Assembly: GCA_039803745.1 (NCBI GenBank)
Contig: JBDRZD010000025.1
Coordinates: forward strand, 11,891-27,146
Source of the DNA: a candidate division WOR-3 bacterium
GTDB lineage: Bacteria > Hydrothermota > Hydrothermia > Hydrothermales > Hydrothermaceae
Length of the DNA: 15,256 nt
Reading direction: 5' to 3'
A model generated the notes under the pieces. The model was not told the DNA's origin, searched no databases, and saw only the letters and a program-made list of their open reading frames with translations. Both the position numbers and the translations under genes were made by a program. Every line of letters begins with the position of its first letter. Within the stretch, counting starts at the first letter, position 1. Below, one piece after another: positions 1 through 15,037 of the stretch.

Positions 1-1921
1 GGATACAGGTGTTGACGCATTCCATCCTGCATTGGAGGGGAAATTTGAAGGTCACTGGTATGATGCAGTGAATAATCAAACATTTCCTTATGATGACCAT
101 GGTCATGGAACCTTTACAATGGGAATAATAATTGGAGGCGATGGTTTAGGACCTTTTCCTGATGATATAGGTGTTGCACCTGATGCAAAATTTGTTTCAT
201 GCAAGTGTTTTGACCAGAATGGCTCGACATCTGCTTCCAGAATTCATACCTGTTTTCAAAAACATGGAGAATGGAAAGCAAATGGAGTTGATATAAAGGC
301 TATAAACAATTCATGGGGTGCAACTAATACAACTTCTTTAGAATTCTGGCAGGATTGTTTGAATTTAAGGAATTTAAAAATTGTTCCTGTGTTTGCTATA
401 GGAAATAATGGACCCGGTTCTGGAACAGCAAGCACTCCCGGTAATTTTCCAATTGTTATAGGAGTTGGTGTATCTGATCAAAATGATAATGTTCCATCCT
501 ATTCATCAAGGGGACCTGCACCAAATCAATATCCATGGAATGACCCAGTATATTGGCCAAGACCTGACTGGAACAGAACAAAGCCTGATATTGTTGCACC
601 CGGTCAAAATATAAGATCATCATGGCCGGGTGGTGGTTACCAGTATTCAACATGCACATCTACTGCAACTCCTCATGTAACAGGAGGAATTTTAATTTTA
701 TTCCAGAAGAATCCCTATTTAACTTTTAAAAAGGTTTATTCATTGCTTCTTGATTATGCAAGAAGACCCTCTCAGGGTTCTCCTTATCCAAATAATAGTT
801 ATGGATGGGGAATTTTAAATATATATCAATCACTTTTACATACTCCATCACCATGGGAGACACATGACTGCGGTGAAATTACCCTTGTGGTATCAAATAT
901 GGGTGTGTTCGGGGAATGCTCATATCCTCATGGTTCGCTATATCATCTTTATGCAGGTAGTTTTTCAATTGGAACAGTGATGCCCTATGTTATTGATAGA
1001 TATTATTATGATGAAGACTGGATACCAATTGATGGGGTTTATATGTATGAGCCTTATCCACCTTTCTGTGAATATTCCTATGCTTCTTATAGTGATTCTG
1101 GTGGTGAGGAGATAAAAGGGATAATAGTAAAACAAAAGGGATTCACGTTCAGTGAGGAGAATTTAAGGGATTTTGTAATAATTGAATATATTTTAAAAAA
1201 TACCTCATCACAGCCTGTCTTCGGTATTTATTCGGGCATTTTCCTTGACTGGGATATAAATCATTCAAACTTTGCTGATTATGGTGGAACAGATTCTTCA
1301 AGGAGTATGGCTTACCAATATTATGGAAATATATATATGGGTTCTGCAATTTTGTATCCTGAAAGGGGAAGTCCTTTGATAAGAAATCTTTCAATTATAA
1401 GGAATGAGGAATATGTTTATCCCTATTTAGATTTGCCTGATTCAATTGCAATTAAATTTTTAAACGGGACACTTTCTTTTCCCTATGCAGACAGTGCTTC
1501 TGATTTATCAACCTGTATTTCTGCTGGTCCATTTAATATAAATCCAGGGGATTCTATAAAAGTTGCATTTGCAATTGCTGGTGGGCTTAGTTTAGATTCT
1601 TTAAAAGAGCATATTGATTCTGCCTATTCAAGATATTTAAGTATCGGCTTTTCTGAAAGACCTTCTTTTGATAAAGAAGATTTAAGAATATATCCGCTTA
1701 TTTCTTCAGGGAAAATTTATGTTGATTACAATTTTAGTTATTTAATTAAAGGAAAGATTTCAATATACAATGTTTATGGCTCAAAATTAAAAATTTTGAA
1801 TTTTGAAGGAAAGAAAGGGTTAAAGGAGATAGATTTAAGGGATTTTGCTTCAGGAATATATTTCATAGAAATTAAAACGCCTTTTTTGAAAAAGAAAAAT
1901 AAATTTTTAATCTTAAAATGA
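1..1921 (+). CDS. S8 (subtilisin-family) serine peptidase with a central beta-rich domain and a T9SS type-A-like C-terminal sorting domain; 5'-truncated by the window edge
   Basis: The frame is open from nt 2 (DTGVDAFHPALEG), giving the catalytic Asp motif DTG, so the TTG at 32 is not the real start. His motif HGHGTFTMG (His at 104-106); oxyanion Asn in FAIGNNG; SSRGP and KPDIVAPG; Ser motif CTSTATPHV (Ser at 659-661); YGWG. C-terminal IYP...IYNVYG...SGIYF...KFLILK. Confidence 0.93.
   Translation, partial: DTGVDAFHPALEGKFEGHWYDAVNNQTFPYDDHGHGTFTMGIIIGGDGLGPFPDDIGVAPDAKFVSCKCFDQNGSTSASRIHTCFQKHGEWKANGVDIKAINNSWGATNTTSLEFWQDCLNLRNLKIVPVFAIGNNGPGSGTASTPGNFPIVIGVGVSDQNDNVPSYSSRGPAPNQYPWNDPVYWPRPDWNRTKPDIVAPGQNIRSSWPGGGYQYSTCTSTATPHVTGGILILFQKNPYLTFKKVYSLLLDYARRPSQGSPYPNNSYGWGILNIYQSLLHTPSPWETHDCGEITLVVSNMGVFGECSYPHGSLYHLYAGSFSIGTVMPYVIDRYYYDEDWIPIDGVYMYEPYPPFCEYSYASYSDSGGEEIKGIIVKQKGFTFSEENLRDFVIIEYILKNTSSQPVFGIYSGIFLDWDINHSNFADYGGTDSSRSMAYQYYGNIYMGSAILYPERGSPLIRNLSIIRNEEYVYPYLDLPDSIAIKFLNGTLSFPYADSASDLSTCISAGPFNINPGDSIKVAFAIAGGLSLDSLKEHIDSAYSRYLSIGFSERPSFDKEDLRIYPLISSGKIYVDYNFSYLIKGKISIYNVYGSKLKILNFEGKKGLKEIDLRDFASGIYFIEIKTPFLKKKNKFLILK
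1682..1918 (+). other. T9SS/Por-type C-terminal sorting domain-like region of the S8 peptidase
   Basis: About 79 aa at the C-terminus with LRIYP, ISIYNVYG, LRDFASGIYFIEI and a Lys-rich terminal strand KKNKFLILK; matches the type-A CTD pattern. Confidence 0.8.
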
Positions 1922-2902
1922 ACCTTTTAAAGGATAAACAGTATAGGGTGAAGCATCCAAATTTGTTTTTATTCCCTTTTTGAAAAGTGAAATTGCCCTT
2001 ATTCCTACCATGCAGGCATTATCAGAAGCATAAATTTTTGAAGGGAAATAAACTTCTTTAAAATTTTCCTTAAATTTTTCCCTTAATCTTTCATTTGCAG
2101 AAACACCACCAACAACTGCTATCTTTTCTATTCCTAAAATTTCTTTTGCCTCAATTGTTTTTTCAAGTAAACTATCAACAATTGCTTCCTGGTATGATGC
2201 GCATATATCTTCCAGATTTTCTCTTATAAATTTTTTTGGTCTTTTTTTAACAAAATAAAGTAAAGATGTTTTTAATCCTGAAAAACTGAAAGAAAATACT
2301 GGTGTTTTTGCTCTTGGAAAATTAAATTTTTCAGGATTACCTTTTTCAGCCATTTCAGCAATTCTTGCACCACCGGGATATGGAAAACCAAGAATTTTTG
2401 CCCCTTTATCAAAAGCCTCACCTGCTGCATCATCAAGTGTTCCTCCAAGATATTTTATTTCTTCATTTTCTTCCATTAAAAAGAATTCAGTATGACCACC
2501 TGATGCAAGTAAAAATAAAATTGGTGGTTTTAAAAAAGGAAAGTCAAGAAATATTGAATATAAATGGGCTTCAAGATGGTCAACTCCGATAAATGGTTTT
2601 TTATAAAAATATGCAAGAGATTTTGCAAAGGTAAAACCAACTAAAAGAGAAACAATGAGACCAGGCCCCTGTGTTGCTGAAATTATGTCAACTTCCTCAA
2701 TATTTATTTTTGAAATTTCAATTGCTGTTTTTAAACTTGGTAAAATTAATGCAGTATGAATTCTTGAGGCAATTTCAGGGACAACACCTCCATAATCTCT
2801 ATGAAGAATATGAACATTTGTTATATTTGCTAAAACCTTATTGTCTTCTAAAATTGCACAGGATGTCTCATCACAGGAAGTTTCAAAGGCTAATACTTTC
2901 AT
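1913..2902 (-). CDS. tsaD: tRNA N6-adenosine threonylcarbamoyltransferase TsaD (Kae1/YgjD family)
   Basis: ETSCDET, YGGVVPEIASRIH, GPGL, HLEAH, SGGHT, DDAAGEAFDK, FSFSGLKT, GGVSAN and SDNA motifs. The start is placed at the ATG at 2902 (MKVLAFETS) rather than 2920 because it matches the family N-terminus and lies 6 nt after a TATAAT. Confidence 0.97.
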   Translation of the reverse strand: MKVLAFETSCDETSCAILEDNKVLANITNVHILHRDYGGVVPEIASRIHTALILPSLKTAIEISKINIEEVDIISATQGPGLIVSLLVGFTFAKSLAYFYKKPFIGVDHLEAHLYSIFLDFPFLKPPILFLLASGGHTEFFLMEENEEIKYLGGTLDDAAGEAFDKGAKILGFPYPGGARIAEMAEKGNPEKFNFPRAKTPVFSFSFSGLKTSLLYFVKKRPKKFIRENLEDICASYQEAIVDSLLEKTIEAKEILGIEKIAVVGGVSANERLREKFKENFKEVYFPSKIYASDNACMVGIRAISLFKKGIKTNLDASPYTVYPLKGSF

Positions 2903-2938
2903 TTTTTTATTATAAACCATTATAATTAAATTATGAAA
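2897..2938. promoter_or_regulatory. Bidirectional sigma70-type promoter between tsaD and gmd, probably giving leaderless transcripts
   Basis: Minus-strand TATAAT (ATTATA at 2909-2914) lies 6 nt before the tsaD ATG, and plus-strand TATAAT (2921-2926) lies 6 nt before the gmd ATG. No Shine-Dalgarno on either side; the region has dyad symmetry. Confidence 0.7.
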
Positions 2939-3982
2939 ACAAAAAAAGCAATAATAACAGGTATTACAGGTCAGGATGGTTCATACCTTGCTGAATTCTT
3001 GCTTTCAAAGGGGTATGAAGTTCATGGAATAATAAGAAGGTCTTCAACAACATCAACAACAAGAATTGAACATATATATGTTGATCCCCATACACCCGGT
3101 GCAAAACTTTTCCTTCATTATGGAGACCTTTCAGATTCTTCATATTTAACAAATTTAATTTATGAGATAAAACCCGATGAAATTTATAATCTTGGTGCAC
3201 AGAGTCATGTAAAGGTTAGTTTTGATTTGCCTGAATATACAGGAGATATAACAGGTTTGGGAGCAGTGAGGATTTTAGAGGCAATTAAAAAAAGTGGTAT
3301 TTCCTGCAAATTTTATCAGGCTTCTTCATCAGAAATGTTTGGTTTCGCTTCTCCTCCTCAAAATGAAAATTCTGGATTTTTTCCAAGAAGCCCTTATGCA
3401 GCAGCAAAACTTTATGCATACTGGATGACAAGAATATACAGGGATGCTTATGGAATATTTGCAGTAAATGGTATACTTTTCAACCATGAATCACCAAGAA
3501 GAGGAGAAACATTCGTTACAAGAAAAATAACCCTCGGAGTCGTAAATATTCTTAAGAAAAAACAGGAATTTTTATATATGGGAAATATAGAAGCAAAAAG
3601 GGATTGGGGTTATGCACCTGAATACATTGAAGTTATGTGGAAGATGCTACAGAAGGAAAAGCCTGATGATTATGTGATAGGAACAGGTGAATGGCATTCT
3701 GTTAAAGAATTTCTTGAAGAGGCTTTCTCCTATGTTGGACTTAAATGGGAAAAATATGTGAAGATAGATAAAGAATATTTAAGACCTATTGATGTTGAAA
3801 ATTTAAGGGCAGATTTTTCAAAGGCAAAAAAGGAACTTGGATGGGAACCAAAAATTAAATTCAAAGAACTTGTTAAAATAATGATGGATGCAGAAATGAG
3901 AATGAATGGGCTTGAGCCAGTAGGTGAAGGAGATAGAATTTTAAAGGAAAAATTTCCAGATAGATGGTGGATTCGCGATTGA
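2933..3982 (+). CDS. gmd: GDP-mannose 4,6-dehydratase
   Basis: [30 protein letters not shown], catalytic SPYAAAK (YxxxK), [21 protein letters not shown]. Confidence 0.97.
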
Positions 3983-4014
3983 AATTGAAAATATTTTTAT
4001 TATATAATTAAAAT
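3979..4014 (+). promoter_or_regulatory. sigma70-type promoter for rpmB (probably leaderless)
   Basis: TTGAAA (3979-3984), 18-nt spacer, TATAAT (4003-4008), 6 nt, ATG (4015); no SD. Confidence 0.7.
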
Positions 4015-4200
4015 ATGGCAAAATGTTATAAGTGTGGAAAGCATACACAGATAGGAAGGAATGTATCCCATGCCCATAATGTTACAAGGAGATTTTTTAA
4101 ACCAAATTTACATAAAATAAGGATAAAGGAAGGAAATAAAATAAAAAGAGTTTATGTTTGCACAAAGTGTTTAAGGAAAGTAAATAAGGTAATTGGCTAA
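4015..4200 (+). CDS. rpmB: 50S ribosomal protein L28, zinc-binding (C+) form
   Basis: 61 aa basic protein with CYKCGK...GRNVSHAHN.TRRFFKPNL...VCTKCLR; two CxxC pairs. Confidence 0.97.
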   Translation: MAKCYKCGKHTQIGRNVSHAHNVTRRFFKPNLHKIRIKEGNKIKRVYVCTKCLRKVNKVIG

Positions 4201-4849
4201 AAAATTTTCATCTTTCTGGATAATTTATAAAGATATAATCCTTGAAATAAAAACAAAAGAAATAATAATACCTTTTTTAATTTTTTCCTTTTTATTGATA
4301 GTTTTTATTTCTTTTTCTATTCAAAACAGAGAATTTTCACCTTTTATTTTCTGGCTTTCCTTTCTTTTTTCAGGAATAATAAGTCTTTCAAGATATACTG
4401 TTAAAGAAACAAATGGCGGTTTTAAAGGATTGCTTATTTTACCAATTGACAGGGAAAGCATTTTTATTGGAAAAACAATTTCTCTAACCCTTTTTTTATT
4501 CTTATCAGGAATATTCCTTTACTTTTTATTTTTAATTTTTTTGAATTTCCCTTTTTCATTAAAAATATTTCTTTATTTTTTAATAATTTTATTTTTTACA
4601 TCCTTTTCCTTTTCTTCTCTTGGCATTTTAATCTCATTTTTAACAATGGGAACAAGAGCAAAAGAATTTTTCTTACCCCTTATTATAATACCTCTTTTTA
4701 TTCCTCCTTTTATCTCTGCAATCTCACTTACAAATAAAGTTTTATCAAATGAAAAATTTCTTTCCCCTTATCTTTATATTTTAATCTTTTTTTCACTCCT
4801 TTATTTTTTCTTAAACCAGGTTCTTTTTGAAGAAATTTTGATTGACTGA
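4193..4849 (+). CDS. ccmB: CcmB-like heme exporter / ABC-2-type permease
   Basis: About 6 TM helices; KDIILEIKTKE, FWLSFLFSG, E.NGGFKGLLILPIDRESIFIGK and TRAKEFFLPLIIIPLFIP match CcmB motifs. TTG start overlaps the rpmB stop by 8 nt. Confidence 0.8.
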   Translation: MAKKFSSFWIIYKDIILEIKTKEIIIPFLIFSFLLIVFISFSIQNREFSPFIFWLSFLFSGIISLSRYTVKETNGGFKGLLILPIDRESIFIGKTISLTLFLFLSGIFLYFLFLIFLNFPFSLKIFLYFLIILFFTSFSFSSLGILISFLTMGTRAKEFFLPLIIIPLFIPPFISAISLTNKVLSNEKFLSPYLYILIFFSLLYFFLNQVLFEEILID

Positions 4850-4850
4850 A

Positions 4851-5576
4851 ATGTTAAGCATGACAGGATACGGATATGCAAGAAGATATACAAAATATGG
4901 GAATTTTGAAGTTGAAATAATCTCTTTAAATTCAAGGGAAGTTGAAATAACCCTTTCAGGAAATAGGGATATAATTGGACTTGAAAGGGAGATAAGAAAA
5001 ATTATTAAAAAGTATTTAAAAAGGGGGAAGATAAAGATTAAGTTTTATTTTCCACCACCAGAAGATTATGTTGTTGATGAAAGGAAACTTAAAAGACTTA
5101 TAGATAGTATAAAAAAATTTGAAAAAAGAGAAAAATTAAACATATATTTTGATAATGCTGATATTTTAAGGGAAATTTTCATAAAAAAGGAGAATTTAGA
5201 GAAAAAGAAAAAGATATTCTTAAAAATTCTTGAGATTGCAGTAAAAAGACTTTTAAAATTCAGAAAAGAAGAGGGAGAGAATTTAAAAAAAGCACTTCTT
5301 GAAGAGGTTAAAAAACTTGAAAATTTATTAAATAATTTAAATGACGAAAAATGTAAAGAGGAAAAAATAAGAATTTTATCTCATGTTGAATCAATTATAA
5401 AAACTATAAATTCAAAAGGGTCATGGGGTAAAAAAATTGATTTTTTAGGGCAGGAAATTTTAAGGGAAGGAAATACAATTTCTCAGAAATCAGAAAATTT
5501 AGAAAATATAAATATTGCAATTGAAATAAAACTATGTGCAGAAAATATAAGAGAGATAGCAAGAAATATAGAATAA
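4851..5576 (+). CDS. yicC: YicC/YloC-family endoribonuclease (short form, 241 aa)
   Basis: N-terminal MLSMTGYG, SLNSR, L.RGKI; R.EEG..L; C-terminal EE..R..SH, GKKIDFLGQEILREGNT..K, E.IRE...NIE. ATG at 4851 is 1 nt after the ccmB stop (the ORF track's TTG at 4842 is an alternative). Confidence 0.9.
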   Translation: MLSMTGYGYARRYTKYGNFEVEIISLNSREVEITLSGNRDIIGLEREIRKIIKKYLKRGKIKIKFYFPPPEDYVVDERKLKRLIDSIKKFEKREKLNIYFDNADILREIFIKKENLEKKKKIFLKILEIAVKRLLKFRKEEGENLKKALLEEVKKLENLLNNLNDEKCKEEKIRILSHVESIIKTINSKGSWGKKIDFLGQEILREGNTISQKSENLENINIAIEIKLCAENIREIARNIE

Positions 5577-7040
5577 TTATAATTTTCTTTCTATATAAGG
5601 AAAAAATGGATTTTCTGGATATTTTAAAATTATTTCCTTATAAATTTCCTTTGCTTTATTTTTATCAATTTTTTCATATATTTCACCAATTTCAATAAGT
5701 GCTTTTACTTTAATTATATCCGGCAAATCACCTTCTTTAATTTTTTCAAAAAGTTTCAAACTCTCATTAATTTTATTTTTTTTCTTTAAATAAACTCCAT
5801 AAAGATAAGAATATAAAAAATCAATTTTTTCTCCTTTTAGATTTATTTCAACATCTTCTCCCTTAAAAATTTTATAATGGATAGGAACATAATCGTTTAA
5901 ATTTTCTTTAAAATTTTTTAAAATATAGGACAAGTAAAGAACTTCTGGTATTCTTTTATCTTTTGGAAAATTTGAAATAAATTTAAATGAGAGTGTTTCA
6001 GCCTTATCAAAATTCTTTGAAAAGTAATGTGTAAGGAAAAGATAAAAACTTGCATCAGAACTTTTTATCTCTTTTAAAATTTCAAAATTTTCTTTAAAAT
6101 TTCCAGTCAAAATATTGTAAAGACCCATAACCTCCAATTTTTTGTTTCTATCTTTTATCTTATCAATATTTTTCTTTGCCTCTCCCATTTCATTTTTCTC
6201 AAGATATATTTTTGAAAGAGAGTAGTATATCTCATCATTAAATTTTTCAACTTTATCCTTTATAATTTCATAAATATCTTTTGCCTTTTCCTTTTCCCCT
6301 TTAATTTCAAAAGCCTTTGCCCTATAATATAAAATTAATGGGTCATTTTCCTTTTCAGTGAATCTTATTATATAATCTGGATTTCTTTCAAGATATTCTT
6401 CTAATTTTTTTTCATCCTTTGATTTTATATAATAATTTATTCCTTTTTCATAAAGATTTTTTGAAATTGCTATCTCTGCAAGAACTGGGTAAAATTCCTC
6501 TTCTTGAAATTCATTTTCAATTGTTTCAAATGGTATATTTTTTGAAATTCTTTTGATTTCAACTTTTATAATTTCCTTATTTTCAAAATTTTTTAGTTCT
6601 TTAAAAGCATTCTTATAATCATTTTTTTCAATATAAATTCTATAAAGCATATCAGAAAATAATTTTTTATCCTTATTTTTTTCCCTTTCATATTTTATAA
6701 ATTTTTCTGCAAGTTCATAAAATTTTAAATCAATCATTGAAAAGAGTATCCTTTTTATTTCTTCTTTTTCAAAAAATAAATCAATTGAATCAATAAGAGA
6801 ATAAAATTTTCTATTTGTCAAATATCTTGAAATTAAAAAATCAGAATAGAATATATAATTTTTTCCAAGTTCACAAATTGCAACTTTTGATATTTTATAA
6901 AGTTTTTCAAATTCTTTATTATTAAGATATTTATCCCTTAACTCAAAATAAAATATTCTATATTTTTTTGGCTCTTCTAAAAATAGTTTCTCTTTTATTT
7001 CTATTTGATTTAAAAATATTAGAATAAAGAAGAAAGCCAT
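5577..7040 (-). CDS. Tetratricopeptide-repeat / alpha-solenoid protein with a short hydrophobic N-terminus
   Basis: TPR-like units LYYRAKAFEIKGEKEKAKDIYE, IYYSLSKIYLEKNEMGEAK and ALIEIGEIYE..DKNKAKEIYKEIILKYPENP; N-terminal FFFILIFL. Overlaps the upstream gene by 22 nt, so the start is somewhat uncertain. Confidence 0.8.
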   Translation of the reverse strand: MAFFFILIFLNQIEIKEKLFLEEPKKYRIFYFELRDKYLNNKEFEKLYKISKVAICELGKNYIFYSDFLISRYLTNRKFYSLIDSIDLFFEKEEIKRILFSMIDLKFYELAEKFIKYEREKNKDKKLFSDMLYRIYIEKNDYKNAFKELKNFENKEIIKVEIKRISKNIPFETIENEFQEEEFYPVLAEIAISKNLYEKGINYYIKSKDEKKLEEYLERNPDYIIRFTEKENDPLILYYRAKAFEIKGEKEKAKDIYEIIKDKVEKFNDEIYYSLSKIYLEKNEMGEAKKNIDKIKDRNKKLEVMGLYNILTGNFKENFEILKEIKSSDASFYLFLTHYFSKNFDKAETLSFKFISNFPKDKRIPEVLYLSYILKNFKENLNDYVPIHYKIFKGEDVEINLKGEKIDFLYSYLYGVYLKKKNKINESLKLFEKIKEGDLPDIIKVKALIEIGEIYEKIDKNKAKEIYKEIILKYPENPFFPYIERKL

Positions 7041-7684
7041 TCAAATAAGAGGAAATGGATTCTCCCAATTAAAAGTGAAACACGTGCCATTATTGTATAG
7101 CCAAAGGATGCACCAAATGCTATCATGATAAAGGTTATTCCAATTCTTGAAAAAATGCCAAGTGCACCTTTATGTTCTTTTGAAAAGAAAAAGTAAAATA
7201 AAGTTGAAATTGTTGCAACAATTATTATTAAGTTGTTAAAACTTGAAAATAAATCTTTGAAAGTTAAAGGTAAAATTGTTGCATGAATCTGGGGAACTAT
7301 GTAACCTTGAAGTGAACCTGTTACACCAAGTCCTGCTGCCATTCCAACTGTGAATGCTATTGCCCATCTTGAAAGCCATGCAACTGGCGGTATAAACCTT
7401 AAAAGCATACATATTGATAAAAATATTGGAATGAATAAAATCCACTGTTCGGGTGTAAAATGAAGCCACATCTTCCAGAATCCATAAGTTTTAAAAACAT
7501 TTTTAAATGGTCCTAAAATTTTTGGTTCAACATCAAAAAACCATAAATATAAAAACCAGAAACTTGCAGCGCTGCCTACATATATATGTTCTGCAAATTT
7601 ATAAAATGGATTATCCTTATATAAAAAAGAAAATATTGCCAATGTTAATCCTGCTGCAATCCATAAAAATATTATATCTATCAT
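7019..7684 (-). CDS. Uncharacterised polytopic membrane protein (about 6 TM, internally triplicated hairpin)
   Basis: Six hydrophobic segments; FSFLYKDNPFYKFAEH motif; SD GAGGAG 7 nt upstream; ATGA overlap with the 273-aa gene. Confidence 0.85.
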   Translation of the reverse strand: MIDIIFLWIAAGLTLAIFSFLYKDNPFYKFAEHIYVGSAASFWFLYLWFFDVEPKILGPFKNVFKTYGFWKMWLHFTPEQWILFIPIFLSICMLLRFIPPVAWLSRWAIAFTVGMAAGLGVTGSLQGYIVPQIHATILPLTFKDLFSSFNNLIIIVATISTLFYFFFSKEHKGALGIFSRIGITFIMIAFGASFGYTIMARVSLLIGRIHFLLFEWLSSLF

Positions 7685-8502
7685 TTTATTCTCCTCAATG
7701 CTATAAAACCAATATTCCCAATTATTATAAATATTAAAATTATAACATGTATAATTGTTTGGGCAGTCATTCCAGAATATGCAAATCCTCTTCTTTTTAA
7801 TAAGTTTTCATAATCAGCAGCCCCTCTTAAACCACCTATTAATCCTTCAATCTGTTTTGCCTGGAAATAGGGATATAAATCAGGAGCAACAACTGCTGTT
7901 GAAGTTAGAATTATTTTTTGTCCATATCTTGCCTGAGCAAATTGAACCCAGTAATCTCCAACAGCACCTGCTTCAAATCCTATTAAAAGAGCAATATCAT
8001 TATAATTATGGACATTCTTCATAAGTGGTAATGAATCAATTGGTGTTCCCTTATAATCAACATCAAATACCATTCTTATTTCCTTTCCCATATTAAGCAT
8101 AACTGCTGCTATTCCAGGTCTATATCCAAGAAATACATAATCCCTTCCATATTCTTTTTTCATCTCTTTTGCTATTTTTTCAAGGGCAATCTGTCCTAAG
8201 GGAAGACCAAGTGGCCAGTGCCCCATCATTATCACTTTTAAATCTTTTTTAAAAAGATGAACAAGCATAACTTCAAGAAGGGGCTGTAATTCTGGCATAC
8301 TTGCTGCATCATAGTCTATTGAAATTAAAACTCTTGAACCAGTTGGCAATTTTTCTATAAATTCATAAGCATTTTTAACTTCTGGAAGTGCCTCAAATTC
8401 AAATCCCTTTTTAATTAAAAGAGGAATTGTAATAGATATAAAAACTAAAAGGTATATTATTCTTCTATCAATTTTTGAAATTTTTTCAAAAAATTCTTTC
8501 AT
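7681..8502 (-). CDS. Uncharacterised membrane-anchored protein (N- and C-terminal TM flanking an alpha/beta domain)
   Basis: TM at about aa 15-30 and aa 248-269; soluble domain with YGRDYVFLGY and YPYFQAKQIEGLIGGLRGAADYE; ATGA coupling on both sides. Confidence 0.85.
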   Translation of the reverse strand: MKEFFEKISKIDRRIIYLLVFISITIPLLIKKGFEFEALPEVKNAYEFIEKLPTGSRVLISIDYDAASMPELQPLLEVMLVHLFKKDLKVIMMGHWPLGLPLGQIALEKIAKEMKKEYGRDYVFLGYRPGIAAVMLNMGKEIRMVFDVDYKGTPIDSLPLMKNVHNYNDIALLIGFEAGAVGDYWVQFAQARYGQKIILTSTAVVAPDLYPYFQAKQIEGLIGGLRGAADYENLLKRRGFAYSGMTAQTIIHVIILIFIIIGNIGFIALRRIK

Positions 8503-9284
8503 TTCAAATATGTTCTTTCAATTCCAAGAATAATCCTTAATGCCATTGCTATTGCACCAAGTGAAATTCCTATAAATAGTCCTCTTTTTGCACCAAGTTG
8601 TGGAACATTCATTATCCAGTCAGAAAGCAGAGGCAATTTTGTTTTTAAGAAAATCCCTATTGGAAAGATAAGGATTAAGGAAATAATTGCAAGCCCAAAA
8701 AATAAAACTCTTTCATATATTGAAATTCTTGGAAGTGCTTCAAGAATACAAACTATTGCAATTAAAATGAATGTAACAGCAATAAAATATGGGGAAAAAT
8801 CCTCTCCTTTTGGAACCCTTCCAAGCATAACAATTCCTGCTGATATTAAAAGTAATGTTGCATTTAATCCCCTTGCCCTGAATGCCCTATAAGCAGCGGA
8901 TGCTATGAAAAATGCGAGAAGAGAAAACATTGTTGCCTGAAGTGGAACAAATACATATGTATAAAAATATCTCAAAAATGTTGAGGTTGGGGCAAAGGGA
9001 TTACCATGCTTTATTCCTGAATATATCCCCCATAGAAGTGTTATTATGAATGTTAAAAGTAAGGCAAAAGAATAAGGTGCTTCTTTTTCCTTTCTTTTAA
9101 TTTTTCTATAATGGTATGCAAGGAGTGAATCAATTCCAAGAATAAGGGTGAATCCCGAAACAATTATATACCAGTCATTGAATCTTTCCTGTAAACTTCC
9201 AAATGGTTCATGGGGAATAAATAAGGCAACTATTAATATGAATCCTGAAATAAAGGTTATAAAAAGTGGGACTCCTTTTTTCAT
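8499..9284 (-). CDS. Uncharacterised polytopic membrane protein (about 8 TM)
   Basis: Eight hydrophobic segments; PLQATMFSLLAFFIASAAYRAFR and AKRGLFIGISLG...LRIILGIER; upstream GAGGTG; ATGA overlaps on both sides. Confidence 0.85.
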   Translation of the reverse strand: MKKGVPLFITFISGFILIVALFIPHEPFGSLQERFNDWYIIVSGFTLILGIDSLLAYHYRKIKRKEKEAPYSFALLLTFIITLLWGIYSGIKHGNPFAPTSTFLRYFYTYVFVPLQATMFSLLAFFIASAAYRAFRARGLNATLLLISAGIVMLGRVPKGEDFSPYFIAVTFILIAIVCILEALPRISIYERVLFFGLAIISLILIFPIGIFLKTKLPLLSDWIMNVPQLGAKRGLFIGISLGAIAMALRIILGIERTYLK

Positions 9285-10411
9285 ATCACCTCAAAAAAGT
9301 TTTTCAAAAAGTGGAATAAGGGATTTTTTGTTAAAAATGCAATTGTTTCAAGTATAAGTCCTGCTATTACTATTATTATAAGAAGTGCCTTTACATAATC
9401 TTCACCTTTTATTGTTGCAAGTGATAGAGGGTCTCTTGTTAAATATGCGCTTGCTGCATACATCTCTTCACCTATCAGTGTATAATCTGTTGCTGCTATG
9501 AAAAAGGGAAGCTGGGTTACAGCAGTTGTTCCTGATATCTGTATTGCCCCTATTGAGTTTCCTGTTTCTGCAAGAATTAATGATTCTGCATAAAAATATC
9601 CCTGTAAAAATATTGCACCAGGACGCTCCCTTACCATTATTCCATCACAACCAGCAGCATATCCAAACTGGTCATAGGATAAAAAGAATACATTCCCCTC
9701 TTTATAAAGGTCTGGTCTTCCTGCTTCAATAAAACCTTCTTTAACTGTTTCCTGTGCTGCAACAAATACAACAGGGTCATAACAAGGAACTATGATATCA
9801 ACTTCATATTCACCTGCCTTTTTTGAAACCCTTTTTAAAATTGAAAGACCTGCAATTGTTGGTATCTCGGCAATTGTTCCAAGACCAAGAATAAAAAGAA
9901 GGGGTCTTCCAAGTTCTGTTGATCTACCAACTGCTTCATCTATTGCATCAAGTCCTGTTATCTTTCTTATAAACAGTTCCTCTTTTTTTGCTCTCCTGAC
10001 AAAATATAAAAGGAAAGCAAGTATGATTATAAGAAGAATCAAAACACTTGTTCTCTTTTTATGAAACCATTCTGCATGGGCAACTGCTACATTTGAGAAT
10101 TCACTATCACTCCATATTTCCCCTTTTATCGCCCTTATAAAATACCTGTATTTAACCTTATTTTTACAATTTGAATCAAGAAAATAATTTGTCCCCCTTG
10201 GTAAAATTTCAAGTGTTTCAGGTAAACTCCACTTTCCTTCAATTTCCTCTTGCCTGAAAATTATATAATTATCTATTATTGAATCAGAAGGTGAAAGTTC
10301 CCATTTTATTTCTATTTTTCCTCCTGCATCATTTGGATAATCATTTGCTTTAATATTTGAAGGGGGGAGAGGAGGAATATAGAGAAAGAGAAATAAAATT
10401 ATTTTTATCAT
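9281..10411 (-). CDS. Fibronectin type III domain + DUF6754-like membrane protein
   Basis: Short hydrophobic N-terminus; FN3 pattern at aa 13-110 (PP.N...I.IKW...Y.IFR...Y.D...Y.Y.IRA...SN); TM at about aa 123-138; domain with IRKI.GL.AIDEAVGR.TE.GRP, QFGYA, AESL..AE.G and QLPFF...DYTLIGEE.YAASAYL, recognised from memory as DUF6754-like; C-terminal TM. Confidence 0.8.
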   Translation of the reverse strand: MIKIILFLFLYIPPLPPSNIKANDYPNDAGGKIEIKWELSPSDSIIDNYIIFRQEEIEGKWSLPETLEILPRGTNYFLDSNCKNKVKYRYFIRAIKGEIWSDSEFSNVAVAHAEWFHKKRTSVLILLIIILAFLLYFVRRAKKEELFIRKITGLDAIDEAVGRSTELGRPLLFILGLGTIAEIPTIAGLSILKRVSKKAGEYEVDIIVPCYDPVVFVAAQETVKEGFIEAGRPDLYKEGNVFFLSYDQFGYAAGCDGIMVRERPGAIFLQGYFYAESLILAETGNSIGAIQISGTTAVTQLPFFIAATDYTLIGEEMYAASAYLTRDPLSLATIKGEDYVKALLIIIVIAGLILETIAFLTKNPLFHFLKNFFEVI

Positions 10412-10450
10412 AAGAAATTAATTATAATACAAACTAAAACTTTAAAACAA
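10412..10450 (-). promoter_or_regulatory. Putative sigma70 promoter for the five-gene membrane operon
   Basis: Minus strand: TTGTTT (10450-10445), 18-nt spacer, TATAAT (10426-10421), 9 nt, ATG (10411); no SD. Confidence 0.55.
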
Positions 10451-11453
10451 TTTTACCAAATACTTTTCTTTCTTCAATTAATCTATGTGCTTCCTGTGCC
10501 TTTTCAAAATTCAAAACTTTACTTATTGATATTTTTATAAATCCCTTTTTTACATATTCAAGTCCCTTTAAGAGATGCCTCCTTGTTCCCATCGTTGAAC
10601 CAATTATCTGAATCTGTCTGAAAAATACATGTCTTAAATCAATTCTTGCATCATAACCACTTGTTGCGCCACATATAACTATCTTTCCTCCCCAATTAAC
10701 TATTTTTATTAATTTCTCCCAGAATTCTTTTCCAGTATGGTCAAATATAATATCAATTTTTTCGCAAATATTCTTTAATTTTTTCTCCCAGTTATCTTCT
10801 GTATAGACAATCCCGTCATCAGCACCAAACCATTTTGCCCTCTCAATCTTTTCTTTATTTCCTGCTGTAACAAAAACATTGCATTTTATCATCTTTAAAA
10901 TCTGTATCAAATTTAAACTTACACCAGAACCTGCTGCCATAACAAGGCAGTTCATTCCTGGCTCAAGGTTTGCCTTTTCAACCATTTGAACTGCAGTTAA
11001 AAGTGCAAGCGGAATTGCTGCTGCTTCAACAAAGGAAATATTTTCAGGAATTAAAAATACATTTTCCTTTGGAACATTTATATATTCAGACTCTACACCC
11101 TGTGTTCTCTCACCAAAAATTTTATATTCCTTACATAAATTTTCGTTTCCTGAAATACATTTCTCGCATCTTCCACAAAAAATTGCAGGATATATTAAAA
11201 CCTTATCACCTTTCTTTATTCCTTCAACATTTTCTCCTATCTCTTCAACAATCCCTGCTGCATCTGCTCCAAGAACATGGGGAAATTTTAAAGAAAGCCC
11301 TGGAAGCCCTTTTCTTACCCATATGTCAAGATGATTTATTCCTGCTGCTTTAACCTTTATCCTTACTTCATTTGGTTTTAATTCTCTTAAAGGGATTTCA
11401 CCAATCTTTATTACTTCAGGAGGACCATTTTCATTTATATAAACTGCCTTCAT
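10434..11453 (-). CDS. MDR-superfamily zinc-binding alcohol dehydrogenase / quinone oxidoreductase-like protein
   Basis: VKAAGINHLD, PHVLGADAAG.V, structural-Zn cluster CGRCEKC...NLC (11133-11177), EAAAIP, AAGSGV nucleotide-binding loop, FGKIVL. TAATG overlap with the htpX stop. Confidence 0.92.
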   Translation of the reverse strand: MKAVYINENGPPEVIKIGEIPLRELKPNEVRIKVKAAGINHLDIWVRKGLPGLSLKFPHVLGADAAGIVEEIGENVEGIKKGDKVLIYPAIFCGRCEKCISGNENLCKEYKIFGERTQGVESEYINVPKENVFLIPENISFVEAAAIPLALLTAVQMVEKANLEPGMNCLVMAAGSGVSLNLIQILKMIKCNVFVTAGNKEKIERAKWFGADDGIVYTEDNWEKKLKNICEKIDIIFDHTGKEFWEKLIKIVNWGGKIVICGATSGYDARIDLRHVFFRQIQIIGSTMGTRRHLLKGLEYVKKGFIKISISKVLNFEKAQEAHRLIEERKVFGKIVLKF

Positions 11454-12400
11454 TATATTCTATGAGCCATCCTTTTTAAATAAAATATTCTTTTTTCAAT
11501 TGGGGGATGCGTGCTCCATAAATCAGCCCATAAATTTTCCAAATTTTCTAATTTATTTTTTAATGGTGAAACTATAAAAAGTGGAGAGATTGCTTTGTTG
11601 CCAATAGGTATTCCCTTTTGATTTAAATAAATCTTTTCAAGGGCATTTGCAAGAGAAATTGGGTTCCTTGTAAGTTCTGCAGAGGTTGCATCAGCAAGAT
11701 ACTCCCTGCTTCTTGATATTGCAAGGAAAACAAGTTTTGCAATTATTGGTGCAATTACTGCAAGTATCAAAACAATTAATAAGACTATTATATTTCCTCT
11801 TGCATAAACTCTTCTTCTTTTATCTTTAAATCTCAAATTTCTTAAAGCAATATCCGATAAAATTATTATTATTCCAAGTAAGGTTGCTGCAACTGTCATT
11901 GTCAAAATATCTCTATTTTTTATATGGGCAATTTCATGTCCTATAACTCCCTGCATTTCTTCCCTGTTTAAAATTCTTAAAAGACCCCTTGTTACAGCAA
12001 TTGATGAATTGTGAAGGTCTTTTCCTGTTGCAAAGGCATTTGGAATATCAGTTTCCACAATATAGACTTTTGGCATAGGAATACCTGCTGCTATTTTCAT
12101 TTCTTCAACAATATTTATAAGTCTTTTTTCTTCAAAAATTTCTGGATTTGCAGGTCTTGCTCCAATTGAATTTAAAACTATTTTATCCCCATATCTATAA
12201 GAAATAAAAGATTGTGCTCCTGAAATTAAAATTGCAACACTTGTTATAAAAGGAAATTTTATATACTCAGGAAATCCCAAAAAGATATTATCAATTAGAA
12301 AACCTAAAAGACCTGCAATTAAAATAAAAAATAGAATTAAAAATATTGTTTTTCTTATATTTTTTTTCTGTAAATCGTAAAAAGTAATTATCTCAGACAT
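11453..12400 (-). CDS. htpX: M48 family membrane zinc metalloprotease HtpX
   Basis: PNAFATG, IAVTRGLL, HEIAH (HExxH), SRSREYLAD, STHPPIEKRI; 4 TM helices; lies downstream of lemA. ATG at 12400 overlaps the lemA stop (TTG at 12403 is an alternative). Confidence 0.95.
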   Translation of the reverse strand: MSEIITFYDLQKKNIRKTIFLILFFILIAGLLGFLIDNIFLGFPEYIKFPFITSVAILISGAQSFISYRYGDKIVLNSIGARPANPEIFEEKRLINIVEEMKIAAGIPMPKVYIVETDIPNAFATGKDLHNSSIAVTRGLLRILNREEMQGVIGHEIAHIKNRDILTMTVAATLLGIIIILSDIALRNLRFKDKRRRVYARGNIIVLLIVLILAVIAPIIAKLVFLAISRSREYLADATSAELTRNPISLANALEKIYLNQKGIPIGNKAISPLFIVSPLKNKLENLENLWADLWSTHPPIEKRIFYLKRMAHRI

Positions 12401-12959
12401 CAAGACTTACTCGTGGCGTTTCCTTTTCCTCCGGTTTTTCTATTACAAAAAATTCAAATGCCTTGAAATTGAAAATGTTTGCAATTATATTTTTTGGAAA
12501 AACCTGTATAGAAGTATTGTATTTCATAACCATATCATTATAAAATTGCCTTGCAAAGGCTATCTTATTTTCAGTATTTGTTAGTTCTTCTTGAAGCATC
12601 ATAACATTCTGATTTGCCTTTAATTCTGGATATCTTTCAAAAAGGGCAAAAAGTCTTCCAAGAAACCCTGAAAGTTCTCCTTCTGCTTTTCCAATTTCTT
12701 TTAAATCACCTTTATCCCTTACACTAACAGCCTTTGTCCTTGCTTCAATAACCTTTGTTAATGTTTCCTTTTCATATTTCATATATCCTTTAACTGCTTC
12801 AACAAGGTTTGGAATTAAATCATGCCTTCTTTTTAACTGAACATCTATCTGACTCCATGCATTTTTTACCTGCATCCTTTCCCTTACAAGAGAATTGTAT
12901 ATAGAGATTAAGAAAATTACAATTAAAATTATAAGAACTACAAGAATTATTCCCATCAT
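12393..12959 (-). CDS. lemA: LemA family protein
   Basis: N-terminal TM; YNSLV, AWSQIDVQLKRRHDLIPNLV, YPELKAN, ENKIAFARQFYN, FP.NIIA. SD AAGGAGG at 12970-12964; start is the ATG at 12959 (ATGA coupling) or 12956. Confidence 0.97.
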   Translation of the reverse strand: MMGIILVVLIILIVIFLISIYNSLVRERMQVKNAWSQIDVQLKRRHDLIPNLVEAVKGYMKYEKETLTKVIEARTKAVSVRDKGDLKEIGKAEGELSGFLGRLFALFERYPELKANQNVMMLQEELTNTENKIAFARQFYNDMVMKYNTSIQVFPKNIIANIFNFKAFEFFVIEKPEEKETPRVSLDV

Positions 12960-15037
12960 TTTTCCTCCTTTTTGATTTTTATTCTTGCATCAACTACGAC
13001 TGCATCTTTTTTATATACAAAAACAGGGTTTAAATCAATCTCCTCAATCTCTTCTATTTCCTTAACCATCTGTGATGTTCTCAAAATAATTTCTTTTATT
13101 TTATTTATACTTGTTCCTTTAAGCAAATTAAATCCCTTTATACTTTTAATCATCTTAATTGCTTCTCTTGGAAAGATAGGAACAATCCCAAAACTTACAT
13201 CCTTAATTATTTCCACATATATTCCACCAAGACCAAACATCAAAAGTGGTGGGAAAAAATTTGTTCTTTTTGCTCCAATTATAATTTCTTTACCAGGCTT
13301 TGCCATCTTTTGTATTATTACTCCTTTAAATCCTTCTTTTAAAAATTTCTCCTTCATTTTTTTAAATTTCTCAATTGCTTCTTTTTCAGAGTTTATATTT
13401 AAAATAACACCACCTTTTGCCATTTTATGAATTACTTTATCAGCAACAACTTTCATCACAATTGGAAAATTTATCCTTTTACATATTTTATAAACATCCT
13501 TTTCATTCTCAGCATATTCCCATTCAACAGCTTTAAATCCATAAAATTCAAGAATTTTTAGAGAATCCTGAGGAAGTAAAAATCCATCCTCATTTTTAAA
13601 AGAATTATCCAAAATTTCTTTTGCTTTTTCTTTTTCCACTTTAAATATAATTTCCTTTTCCTCTTTTATGCCCTTTTTTAATTCTGAATACTCATAAAGA
13701 CCAGAAACAGCATTTATTGCATCCTCTGGAAATGTATAAAAAGGAACATTTTCCCTTTTTAAAATTTCAACAGGTTTTAATACGCTTTTTTCTCCCAAGA
13801 ATGCAGGAATCAAAGGTTTTTTATTATTTTTAGCATATTTTGCCATCCTCTTTGCAACCTCTTCCATATCTATCATTTTTTGTGGAACCATCATTGATAT
13901 AACAGCATCAACATTTTTATCCTTTAAAAGATTTTTCATAACCCATTCGTATCTTTCAGCATCAGCATCTCCTATTAAATCAAAGGGATTCCCTAAGGAT
14001 GCATAAGGTGGAACCTTTTCTTTTAATTTTTCATAAGTTTTTCTATCAATTTTTGCAAGTCTTAATCCCCTTTTAATACATTCATCGGTTGCAATTATTC
14101 CTGTTCCACCTGCATTTGTTATTATTGCAACCCTATTCCCCTTTGGAAGTGGTTGAGATATTAATGCAAGTGCTTTAACAAGCATCTCTTCAAGTGAATA
14201 AACCCTTAAAATGCCTGCTTTTTTAAAAAGTGCTTCATATATTTCATCAATTCCTGCAATTGCTCCTGTATGGGATGAAACAGCCCTTGCACCTTCAGGT
14301 GTTCTCCCGACTTTTAAAACAATAACAGGTTTTTTCTTTGTTGTTTCCCTTGCAATTTTAAAAAATTCTTCACCCCTTAAAATTCCTTCAATATATAAAA
14401 GTATTATCTCTGTTTCAGGGTCATCTTTGAAATAAGAGAGGGCATCAATCTCATCAACATCAACCTTATTACCAATACTTAAAATCTTTGAAAAACCAAT
14501 TCCCTTTTCCCTTGCATGATCAAGAAGGGAAACACATATTGCTCCTGATTGTGAAACAAAACTCACTTTCCCCCTTTGAGGCATTGGGGTTGCAAAAAAT
14601 GTATTTAATCTTACATTTTGAGAAGTATTGATTACACCGAGACAATTGGGTCCAACGATCCTTATATTATATTTTTTACCAATTTCTTTAATTTTTTCTT
14701 CAAGAATTTCGCCTTCTTCTCCAATTTCCTTGAATCCTGCTGTTATTATTATAACTGCCCTTATTCCCTTTTTACCGCATTCCTCTAAAACAAAAGGAAC
14801 AATCCTTGAAGGAGTTGTTATAACTGCAAGGTCAATATTGTCCTCTATTTCAAGAACACTTTTATAAGATTTATAACCAAGAACATAGTCAGCGTTTGGA
14901 TTAACAGGGAAAAAGGCACCCTCAAATCCTGATTCTATCATGCTTTTAAATGTTTGATATGCTAAACTTTTTGGATCCCTTGATGCCCCAATTATTGCAA
15001 CCTTTTTCGGCTTAAAAAATAAATCAATTACATTCAT
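12956..15037 (-). CDS. ADP-forming acyl-CoA synthetase (acetate-CoA ligase family), fused alpha-beta form, no GNAT domain
   Basis: CoA-binding IIGAS...PVNP, GPNCLG, SQSGA, phospho-His SHTGAIAG (His at 14270-14272), NAGG.G, NPFDL.GDA; ATP-grasp region VMKV...HK..GGV, FGLGGIYVE, DLNP, VVDARI. Confidence 0.93.
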   Translation of the reverse strand: MNVIDLFFKPKKVAIIGASRDPKSLAYQTFKSMIESGFEGAFFPVNPNADYVLGYKSYKSVLEIEDNIDLAVITTPSRIVPFVLEECGKKGIRAVIIITAGFKEIGEEGEILEEKIKEIGKKYNIRIVGPNCLGVINTSQNVRLNTFFATPMPQRGKVSFVSQSGAICVSLLDHAREKGIGFSKILSIGNKVDVDEIDALSYFKDDPETEIILLYIEGILRGEEFFKIARETTKKKPVIVLKVGRTPEGARAVSSHTGAIAGIDEIYEALFKKAGILRVYSLEEMLVKALALISQPLPKGNRVAIITNAGGTGIIATDECIKRGLRLAKIDRKTYEKLKEKVPPYASLGNPFDLIGDADAERYEWVMKNLLKDKNVDAVISMMVPQKMIDMEEVAKRMAKYAKNNKKPLIPAFLGEKSVLKPVEILKRENVPFYTFPEDAINAVSGLYEYSELKKGIKEEKEIIFKVEKEKAKEILDNSFKNEDGFLLPQDSLKILEFYGFKAVEWEYAENEKDVYKICKRINFPIVMKVVADKVIHKMAKGGVILNINSEKEAIEKFKKMKEKFLKEGFKGVIIQKMAKPGKEIIIGAKRTNFFPPLLMFGLGGIYVEIIKDVSFGIVPIFPREAIKMIKSIKGFNLLKGTSINKIKEIILRTSQMVKEIEEIEEIDLNPVFVYKKDAVVVDARIKIKKEEK

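Follow-up and report, generated by a model that had tools for sequence, protein, structure and literature searches.

Solute transporters driven by ATP usually run on P-loop or P-type ATPases. In energy-coupling factor (ECF) and ATP-binding cassette (ABC) importers, one shared energizing unit serves several interchangeable membrane modules with outer binding domains, and inverted-repeat secondary transporters contain paired units in opposite orientation. Here, we describe four consecutive membrane protein genes, denoted A to D (the cassette), in a 15,256-nucleotide (nt) stretch of DNA (the window; positions 11,891 to 27,146 of contig JBDRZD010000025.1, GenBank assembly GCA_039803745.1) from a candidate division WOR-3 bacterium of the class Hydrothermia. 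Sequence comparison marks them as a copy of a set of four membrane proteins with a very wide distribution. The set is almost universal in WOR-3 and in a class labeled Ignavibacteria, with relatives in records titled Zixibacteria, Poribacteria, Cloacimonadota, Fermentibacteria, Eisenbacteria, Edwardsbacteria, and Latescibacterota. In other lineages, the cassette can share an operon with genes for two further proteins, M and N.

The families nearest to M are GlmL/MutL and hydantoinase/oxoprolinase. MutL has been described as a chaperone for the reactivation of glutamate mutase (PMC4682846), and the reactivase of glycerol and diol dehydratases as an Hsp70-like ATPase that remodels its partner complex by ATP-driven subunit release (PMC7674605).

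A four-gene unit of membrane proteins

The genes occupy the minus strand of the window in the following arrangement.

10421..10450, minus strand: sigma-70-type promoter (-35 TTGTTT, 18 nt, -10 TATAAT), from comparison of orthologs
9281..10411, minus strand: subunit A, 376 amino acids (aa), FN3 and DUF6754 domains
8499..9284, minus strand: subunit B, 261 aa, six core transmembrane (TM) helices and a lineage-specific two-helix insertion
7681..8502, minus strand: subunit C, 273 aa, TM helix, soluble domain of ∼210 aa, TM helix
7019..7684, minus strand: subunit D, 221 aa, about six TM helices
5577..7040, minus strand: TPR-repeat protein, 487 aa, TPR_6 match

The sequence contains all five open reading frames (ORFs), the three ATGA overlaps joining A to D, and the overlap of 22 nt between D and the TPR gene, as an earlier reading made from the sequence alone (the sequence-only reading) had stated. 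That reading took the overlaps as typical of a stoichiometric complex; this coupling alone is weak evidence of one because ATGA is the commonest junction in the genome (286 of 883 same-strand junctions with spacing of <300 nt between ORFs of ≥150 aa), where a run of three is expected by chance at ∼3%. Subunit A is a full member of DUF6754 (PF20539) by the curated hidden Markov model cutoff, with residues 112 to 361 matching positions 2 to 252 of the 257-position profile (E = 1e-107; 359 bits versus a cutoff of 27), whereas no Pfam or NCBIfam family was found above cutoff for B, C, or D. A family scan identified TPR_6 in the fifth protein. DUF6754 has no assigned function, as had been noted before, and no Walker A or CxxCH motif was seen when the five translations were read by eye. 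The nearest named homologs belong to Candidatus Hydrothermales/Hydrothermia and WOR-3.

The arrangement of the cassette was compared across 98 loci containing 128 A genes, namely, 78 loci from genome contigs and 20 chosen from relatives in the window's own class. The order A-B-C-D holds for 112 of the 128 A genes; among the other 16, 12 were set aside as lying <3.2 kb from the end of the locus, and 4 deviate (one start-calling artifact, one A-A-B-C-D, one lone A, and one A-B). Sixteen of 20 further loci contain A, with the complete cassette in 12, a cassette that is cut off in 2, and A beside N without B to D in 2. The window's own genome carries a second A-B-C-D copy on contig C36, with 49, 36, 44, and 46% identity for A, B, C, and D, respectively. 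In a tree of 89 cassettes under 80% identity plus the C36 copy (FastTree, midpoint root), the window copy falls into a clade in which most B proteins carry two additional helices, and the C36 copy falls into another clade. For these 89 cassettes, the nearest cassette by A ranked in the top three by B in 72 cases, by C in 69, and by D in 71, and 33 of 34 paralogs are nearer to a cassette from another locus than to their own neighbor. By this comparison, cassettes diverge as units and the paralogs are old. Natural fusions were also found, one sequence each: a B-C fusion and a B with the domain of C inside its TM3-TM4 loop (E = 1e-40). Within the five-gene operon proposed previously, the four membrane genes hold together as one unit, on the evidence of synteny, joint duplication, and the B-C fusions, and the TPR gene falls outside that unit. 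Subunits A to D very probably form one complex.

The TPR gene follows D in 7 of the 20 loci from relatives, all from the window's own order: four from the same genus or family (58 to 99%) and three, matching weakly, from the same order (25 to 31%). None was found in the remaining 91 of the 98 loci, which include all 78 from other lineages, or at the C36 copy. The suggested role of the TPR protein as a scaffold within the complex is unsupported because its gene is restricted to one order and absent at the second copy. The gene is probably cotranscribed with the cassette here and is likely a lineage-restricted local neighbor rather than a core subunit.

Anatomy, predicted topology, and conservation of the subunits

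Subunit A comprises an N-terminal hydrophobic helix, an FN3 domain (residues 12 to 116), a TM helix (118 to 143), the DUF6754 alpha/beta domain, and a second TM helix (328 to 361). Its structural model (predicted local distance difference test score, 95; predicted template modeling [pTM] score, 0.81) contains the FN3 domain, a TM helix, a six-stranded alpha/beta domain, and the second TM helix; the six strands of the DUF6754 domain alternate with helices, an arrangement that may resemble Rossmann-type domains. The FN3 domain has no Pfam match, but a fold search of the model aligned residues 12 to 116 with titin 2nzi (Z = 13.0; root mean square deviation, 2.1; 94 residues aligned). The external FN3 domain envisaged in the sequence-only reading is thus backed by the model, the fold search, and the predicted outward orientation. 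With the whole A model, the matches were filled by FN3 and not by the DUF6754 domain. For B, the model (pTM score, 0.56) yielded a best fold match of Z = 7.8, confined to helical hairpins, and no clear match. No significant sequence match among solved structures was detected for A, the A to D profiles, M, or N; in an atlas search, C matched only unnamed clusters, and the inner domain of A had no usable match outside PF20539.

B and D have six core helices each, for about 16 helices over the four subunits. Positive-inside counts over 89 sequences place the DUF6754 domain of A inside and the domain of C outside, with the N terminus of B inside and that of D outside. The DUF6754 domain is therefore predicted to face the cytoplasm, and the domain of C, FN3, and the TM3-TM4 loop of B are predicted to face out. 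The fusions agree with this topology, joining the C-terminal end of B to the N-terminal end of C in one case and placing the domain of C within the TM3-TM4 loop of B in the other; a single FHA-like insertion in that loop conflicts with it. Homology between A and C or between B and D scored an hhalign probability of <7%; block shuffles equaled a collinear A/C alignment of 196 columns in 7 of 25 cases and the B/D alignment likewise in 7 of 25.

Conservation is uneven across the complex. At the 90% level, 62 of 198 positions are conserved in the inner domain of A, versus 1 of 105 in FN3 and 18 of 208 in the outer domain of C; conservation is also concentrated in the later helices of B and D. The inner domain of A contains many invariant polar residues, and the helices of B and D conserve small residues, with few conserved charged residues within helices. 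The N-terminal part of A is swappable, and A as a whole ranges from about 260 to 1,341 aa, with PQQ/BamB propellers in 13 of 57 long forms scanned (of 150 listed). The two-helix insertion in B of the window lies at residues ∼161 to 215. In relatives, B carries large insertions in the TM3-TM4 loop: this loop is interrupted in 51 of 63 long forms, and the inserted part is in some cases an FG-GAP, Kelch, or PD40 propeller.

Linkage of the cassette to M and N

M (about 600 aa) matches PF13941 (E = 1e-127), and N has about 375 aa. Operons elsewhere combine the cassette with M, N, and two small proteins, s19 and s7, in the order s19-s7-M-N-A-B-C-D or s19-s7-A-B-C-D-M-N, and M or N was found in 20 of the 78 cassette loci from other lineages. 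Identity of M across distant lineages is 57 to 69%. Three of its motifs, D13-x-G15-S-T-T (DCGSTT), D286-I-G-G-A-T-T-D, and S421-G-G, which we take to be the phosphate-1, phosphate-2, and adenosine motifs, are invariant in 90 sequences. M is likely an actin-fold ASKHA protein with intact nucleotide-binding motifs that uses ATP. N has a weak, below-cutoff match to the RnfC_N barrel-sandwich domain, and neither N nor the two small proteins match any family above cutoff. M is tied to N because diverged M-N pairs and single-chain M-N fusions (856 to 993 aa) exist, with no cassette in the fetched stretch (L127 to L130, L132, L133, and L135 to L140). M and N are mostly single copy, versus 1 to 7 cassettes.

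The distribution of these genes was surveyed by counts instead of statistics because the genomes are kin. Among 151 genomes of the window's own phylum, DUF6754 and PF13941 are both present in 139, DUF6754 alone in 4, PF13941 alone in 1, and neither in 7, which belong to one genus. The phylum of genome G160 (record titled Brocadiaceae) includes 25 genomes with DUF6754, M, and N, 2 with DUF6754 only, none with M or N only, and 64 with none of these, for a total of 91. In the class of genome G157, DUF6754 occurs in 81 of 81 genomes (2 to 6 copies) and N in 79 of 81, nearly always as one close copy; in the class of genome G158, DUF6754 and M both occur in 4 of 4. The former class is not patchy and the latter has only four genomes, so neither tests joint loss. 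These counts, with the shared operons, bear out the earlier suggestion that a GlmL/MutL-like ASKHA gene co-occurs with DUF6754, and A to D likely depend functionally on M and N.

This linkage bears on the sequence-only reading of an ATP-independent complex of the four subunits, possibly with a TPR scaffold, which would be a channel or an ion-driven transporter. In keeping with it, no ATPase gene lies in the window operon or at the second copy, and some DUF6754 genomes, all of them drafts, lacked M or N in the searches (4 of 143, 2 of 27, and 2 of 81). A and C, and likewise B and D, are also predicted to have opposite orientations (positive-inside bias, 89 sequences), as in inverted-repeat secondary transporters. 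However, the co-occurrence and shared operons with M and N are tight, the TPR gene is confined to one order, and few charged residues are conserved within the helices. Because the cassette and an ASKHA protein with intact nucleotide-binding motifs, often encoded in the same operon, are retained or lost together, ATP independence is unsupported; the reading is probably wrong, and we give it very little probability.

The kinship of M raises the question of a membrane-anchored enzyme or cofactor complex, with M as a reactivase-type chaperone or ATP-dependent enzyme and with catalytic sites or sites for a cofactor (for example, cobalamin) in the alpha/beta domains of subunits A and C. The nearest families of M and the described role of MutL in reactivating glutamate mutase (PMC4682846) would suit this arrangement, as would the invariant polar residues of the inner domain of A. 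Nevertheless, M scores below all three NCBIfam cutoffs, those of GlmL, Or-4, and TIGR01319 (the pairs of score and cutoff are 237 and 475, 218 and 600, and 174 and 204), and has about 130 extra C-terminal residues compared with GlmL/MutL. MutE (PF06368) was not found in any of six carriers, that is, the window's own genome (93% complete) and five others; as a control, PF06368 recognizes MutE in L142, where true MutL sits between mutS and mutE. PF09043 (lysine aminomutase) had no match in the six genomes, and no positive control matched either. The C36 copy lies downstream of genes that we take, by reading and with no family scan, to encode MeaB, methylmalonyl-CoA mutase subunits, and an EF-G paralog. 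The link to B12 that these neighbors suggest was dropped because B12 genes are not found repeatedly near the cassette in different lineages. We consider the enzyme or cofactor complex quite improbable, and many annotations as "glutamate mutase L" are probably wrong.

A possible ATP-coupled uptake machine

We favor an ATP-coupled uptake module, a possibility that we place somewhat short of even. In this scheme, A to D would constitute one inner membrane complex, inherited as a unit, and M and N would dock on the conserved inner domain of A. ATP hydrolysis by M would cycle the B and D helices, perhaps through binding and release as in the dehydratase reactivases, while the outward domains would capture solutes for import. 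Different cassettes would confer different specificities on one shared motor, by analogy with ECF importers. Uptake is preferred over envelope assembly, signaling, the enzyme or cofactor complex, and the ATP-independent reading because one motor serves many variable modules. More tentatively still, we propose a new class of primary active transporter, in which the ASKHA ATPase M and N, docked on the DUF6754 domain, would drive interchangeable, possibly pseudosymmetric four-subunit modules as a core machine of many uncultured phyla.

The distribution and the outer domains could also be those of an ATP-linked envelope biogenesis machine that exports, flips, or inserts lipid, glycan, or protein, with the outer domains as scaffolds or acceptors. 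Retention is near universal (143 of 151 and 81 of 81 genomes), the paralog classes are ancient and stable, and BamB-like, TolB-like (PD40), and FG-GAP propellers are found on the outer side. Yet no glycosyltransferase, lipid, or secretion gene recurs beside the cassette across lineages, and one phylum has the cassette in only 27 of its 91 genomes, while one whole genus has lost it. We regard this alternative as rather unlikely.

Transmembrane signaling is another reading, in which the outer domains bind ligand, the helices relay the signal, and M is not a motor but a switch that depends on nucleotide. It would account for variable outer domains over a conserved inner domain and for many cassettes per single M and N. 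In two loci, a GntR helix-turn-helix domain is fused to diverged M, followed by diverged N (L131, 9101 to 11218; L134, 3004 to 5181), and in L131 the fusion lies directly upstream of N and two A-B-C-D cassettes. FHA domains are usually cytoplasmic; one B (L123, 4594 to 5856) carries an FHA-like domain in its TM3-TM4 loop, predicted to be outside. Against signaling, a receptor would not require as many as the ∼16 helices present, with their conserved small residues in B and D. Neither an output domain nor a regulator is found repeatedly next to the cassette, and the GntR fusions are confined to the diverged M clade (2 among 16 loci). A signaling role is unlikely in our judgment.

Several observations count against the uptake reading. 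The 20 loci that represent the window's own class contain neither M nor N; the window's own genome has one each of M, N, and the two small genes, on contigs C17, C11, C34, and C2, none of them beside the cassette. The GntR-M fusions hint at sensing, and the FHA-like insertion, of a usually cytoplasmic type, lies in a loop predicted to be outside. Exceptions to the gene order include lone A genes (L037 and L065, the latter among the 12 set-aside locus-end cases), an A-B pair (L101), and A-A-B-C-D (L097). No other neighbor family recurs beside the cassette across lineages and none gives a clue to cargo, the identity of which is the weak step of the uptake reading. The co-occurrence genomes are related drafts whose counts are not independent events, the own-phylum comparison holds a single joint loss only, and near-universal retention in two large groups is as compatible with housekeeping in the envelope as with the uptake of nutrients.

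An ASKHA protein as the driver of a membrane machine would represent a new mechanism. The near-universal presence of the set and its spread over many phyla point to a large gap in knowledge of how cells of little-studied phyla work.

Promoter and genomic surroundings

The promoter proposed previously for the operon, TTGTTT-N18-TATAAT, is present at 10450 to 10421 and was upheld by the comparison of orthologs. Its -10 element ends 9 nt before the ATG of A, and its -35 element lies within the last codons of the upstream dehydrogenase gene. A consensus scan, which found 47 sites versus 34.7 ± 7.5 in shuffles, did not include this promoter among its sites, and the -35 element matches only 3 of 6 consensus positions. 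The same -10 element, 9 nt before the ATG, occurs in four of four orthologs of the same genus or family, two of which have a better -35 element at the identical 18-nt spacing (TTGACA in L085 and TTGAAA in L082); this -10 element was not seen at that place in six more distant loci examined. The cassette transcript is likely near-leaderless. Across 1,221 ORFs of the genome, TATAAT peaks at positions ending 6 to 9 nt before the ATG (39, 22, 19, and 18 occurrences versus ≤11 elsewhere within 44 nt), which suggests many leaderless-type transcripts in this lineage; a literature search returned no paper joining WOR-3 with leaderless transcripts. One RNA contig run contained short pieces (95 to 98%) over several window genes, and three RNA raw-read runs placed no reads on the stretch; neither result bears on expression or operon extent.

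Upstream of the cassette, at 10434 to 15037 (minus strand), lie genes of the acyl-CoA synthetase (ADP-forming type), LemA, M48 peptidase, and zinc-dependent dehydrogenase families, which adjoin the cassette only within the same genus. The plus-strand genes of the window (32 to 1921 and 4193 to 5576) include those for an S8 peptidase with a Por-type C-terminal sorting domain, a CcmB-like membrane protein without adjacent ccmA or ccmC, and a short YicC-like protein whose stop codon abuts that of the TPR gene. In the C36 region that holds the second cassette and its neighbors (2093 to 10321; cassette in L105), tol-pal-like genes, named by reading, lie downstream of the cassette. Elsewhere, s7 or the M operon is often found 3' of genes that, from reading the neighbors, we take to be glycine cleavage P protein-like (L033, L048, L053, L025, L036, L050, and L055); on contig C34 of the window's own genome, s7 overlaps such a gene and M lies elsewhere.

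Comparison with known systems

The searches run produced no match to a characterized complex, in line with the sequence-only reading. A literature search for DUF6754, the family accessions, and GlmL/ASKHA found nothing on this system; most subscription papers, as well as supplements, lay outside its scope. Of the components, A belongs to Pfam DUF6754, and no family above cutoff was found for B, C, D, or N or for either small protein. No heme, Fe-S, or flavin motifs and no known subunit families above cutoff were found in the cassette proteins that would relate them to Rnf, Nqr, or Mrp. M matches PF13941 and keeps the ASKHA motifs, as do GlmL/MutL (NF040745, TIGR01319, and PF13941) and Or-4 (NF040744), but differs from GlmL/MutL in its subcutoff NCBIfam scores, its C-terminal extension, and its position with N and membrane genes instead of mutS and mutE. 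The dehydratase reactivase offers a model for the action of M and N on A, but is soluble and has no membrane subunits.

The ECF and ABC importers are alike in the logic of a shared energizer. Unlike them, A to D and M have no Walker A or ABC signature and no family or solved-structure match to such importers; no P-loop ABC ATPase, permease, or S-component family was found above cutoff in A to D, and the linked protein is of PF13941. By these tests, the system is neither an ABC or ECF transporter nor a respiratory complex, and it does not represent a glutamate mutase operon. It remains uncharacterized and unlike any identifiable known kind, with a parts list that is defined well enough for direct tests.

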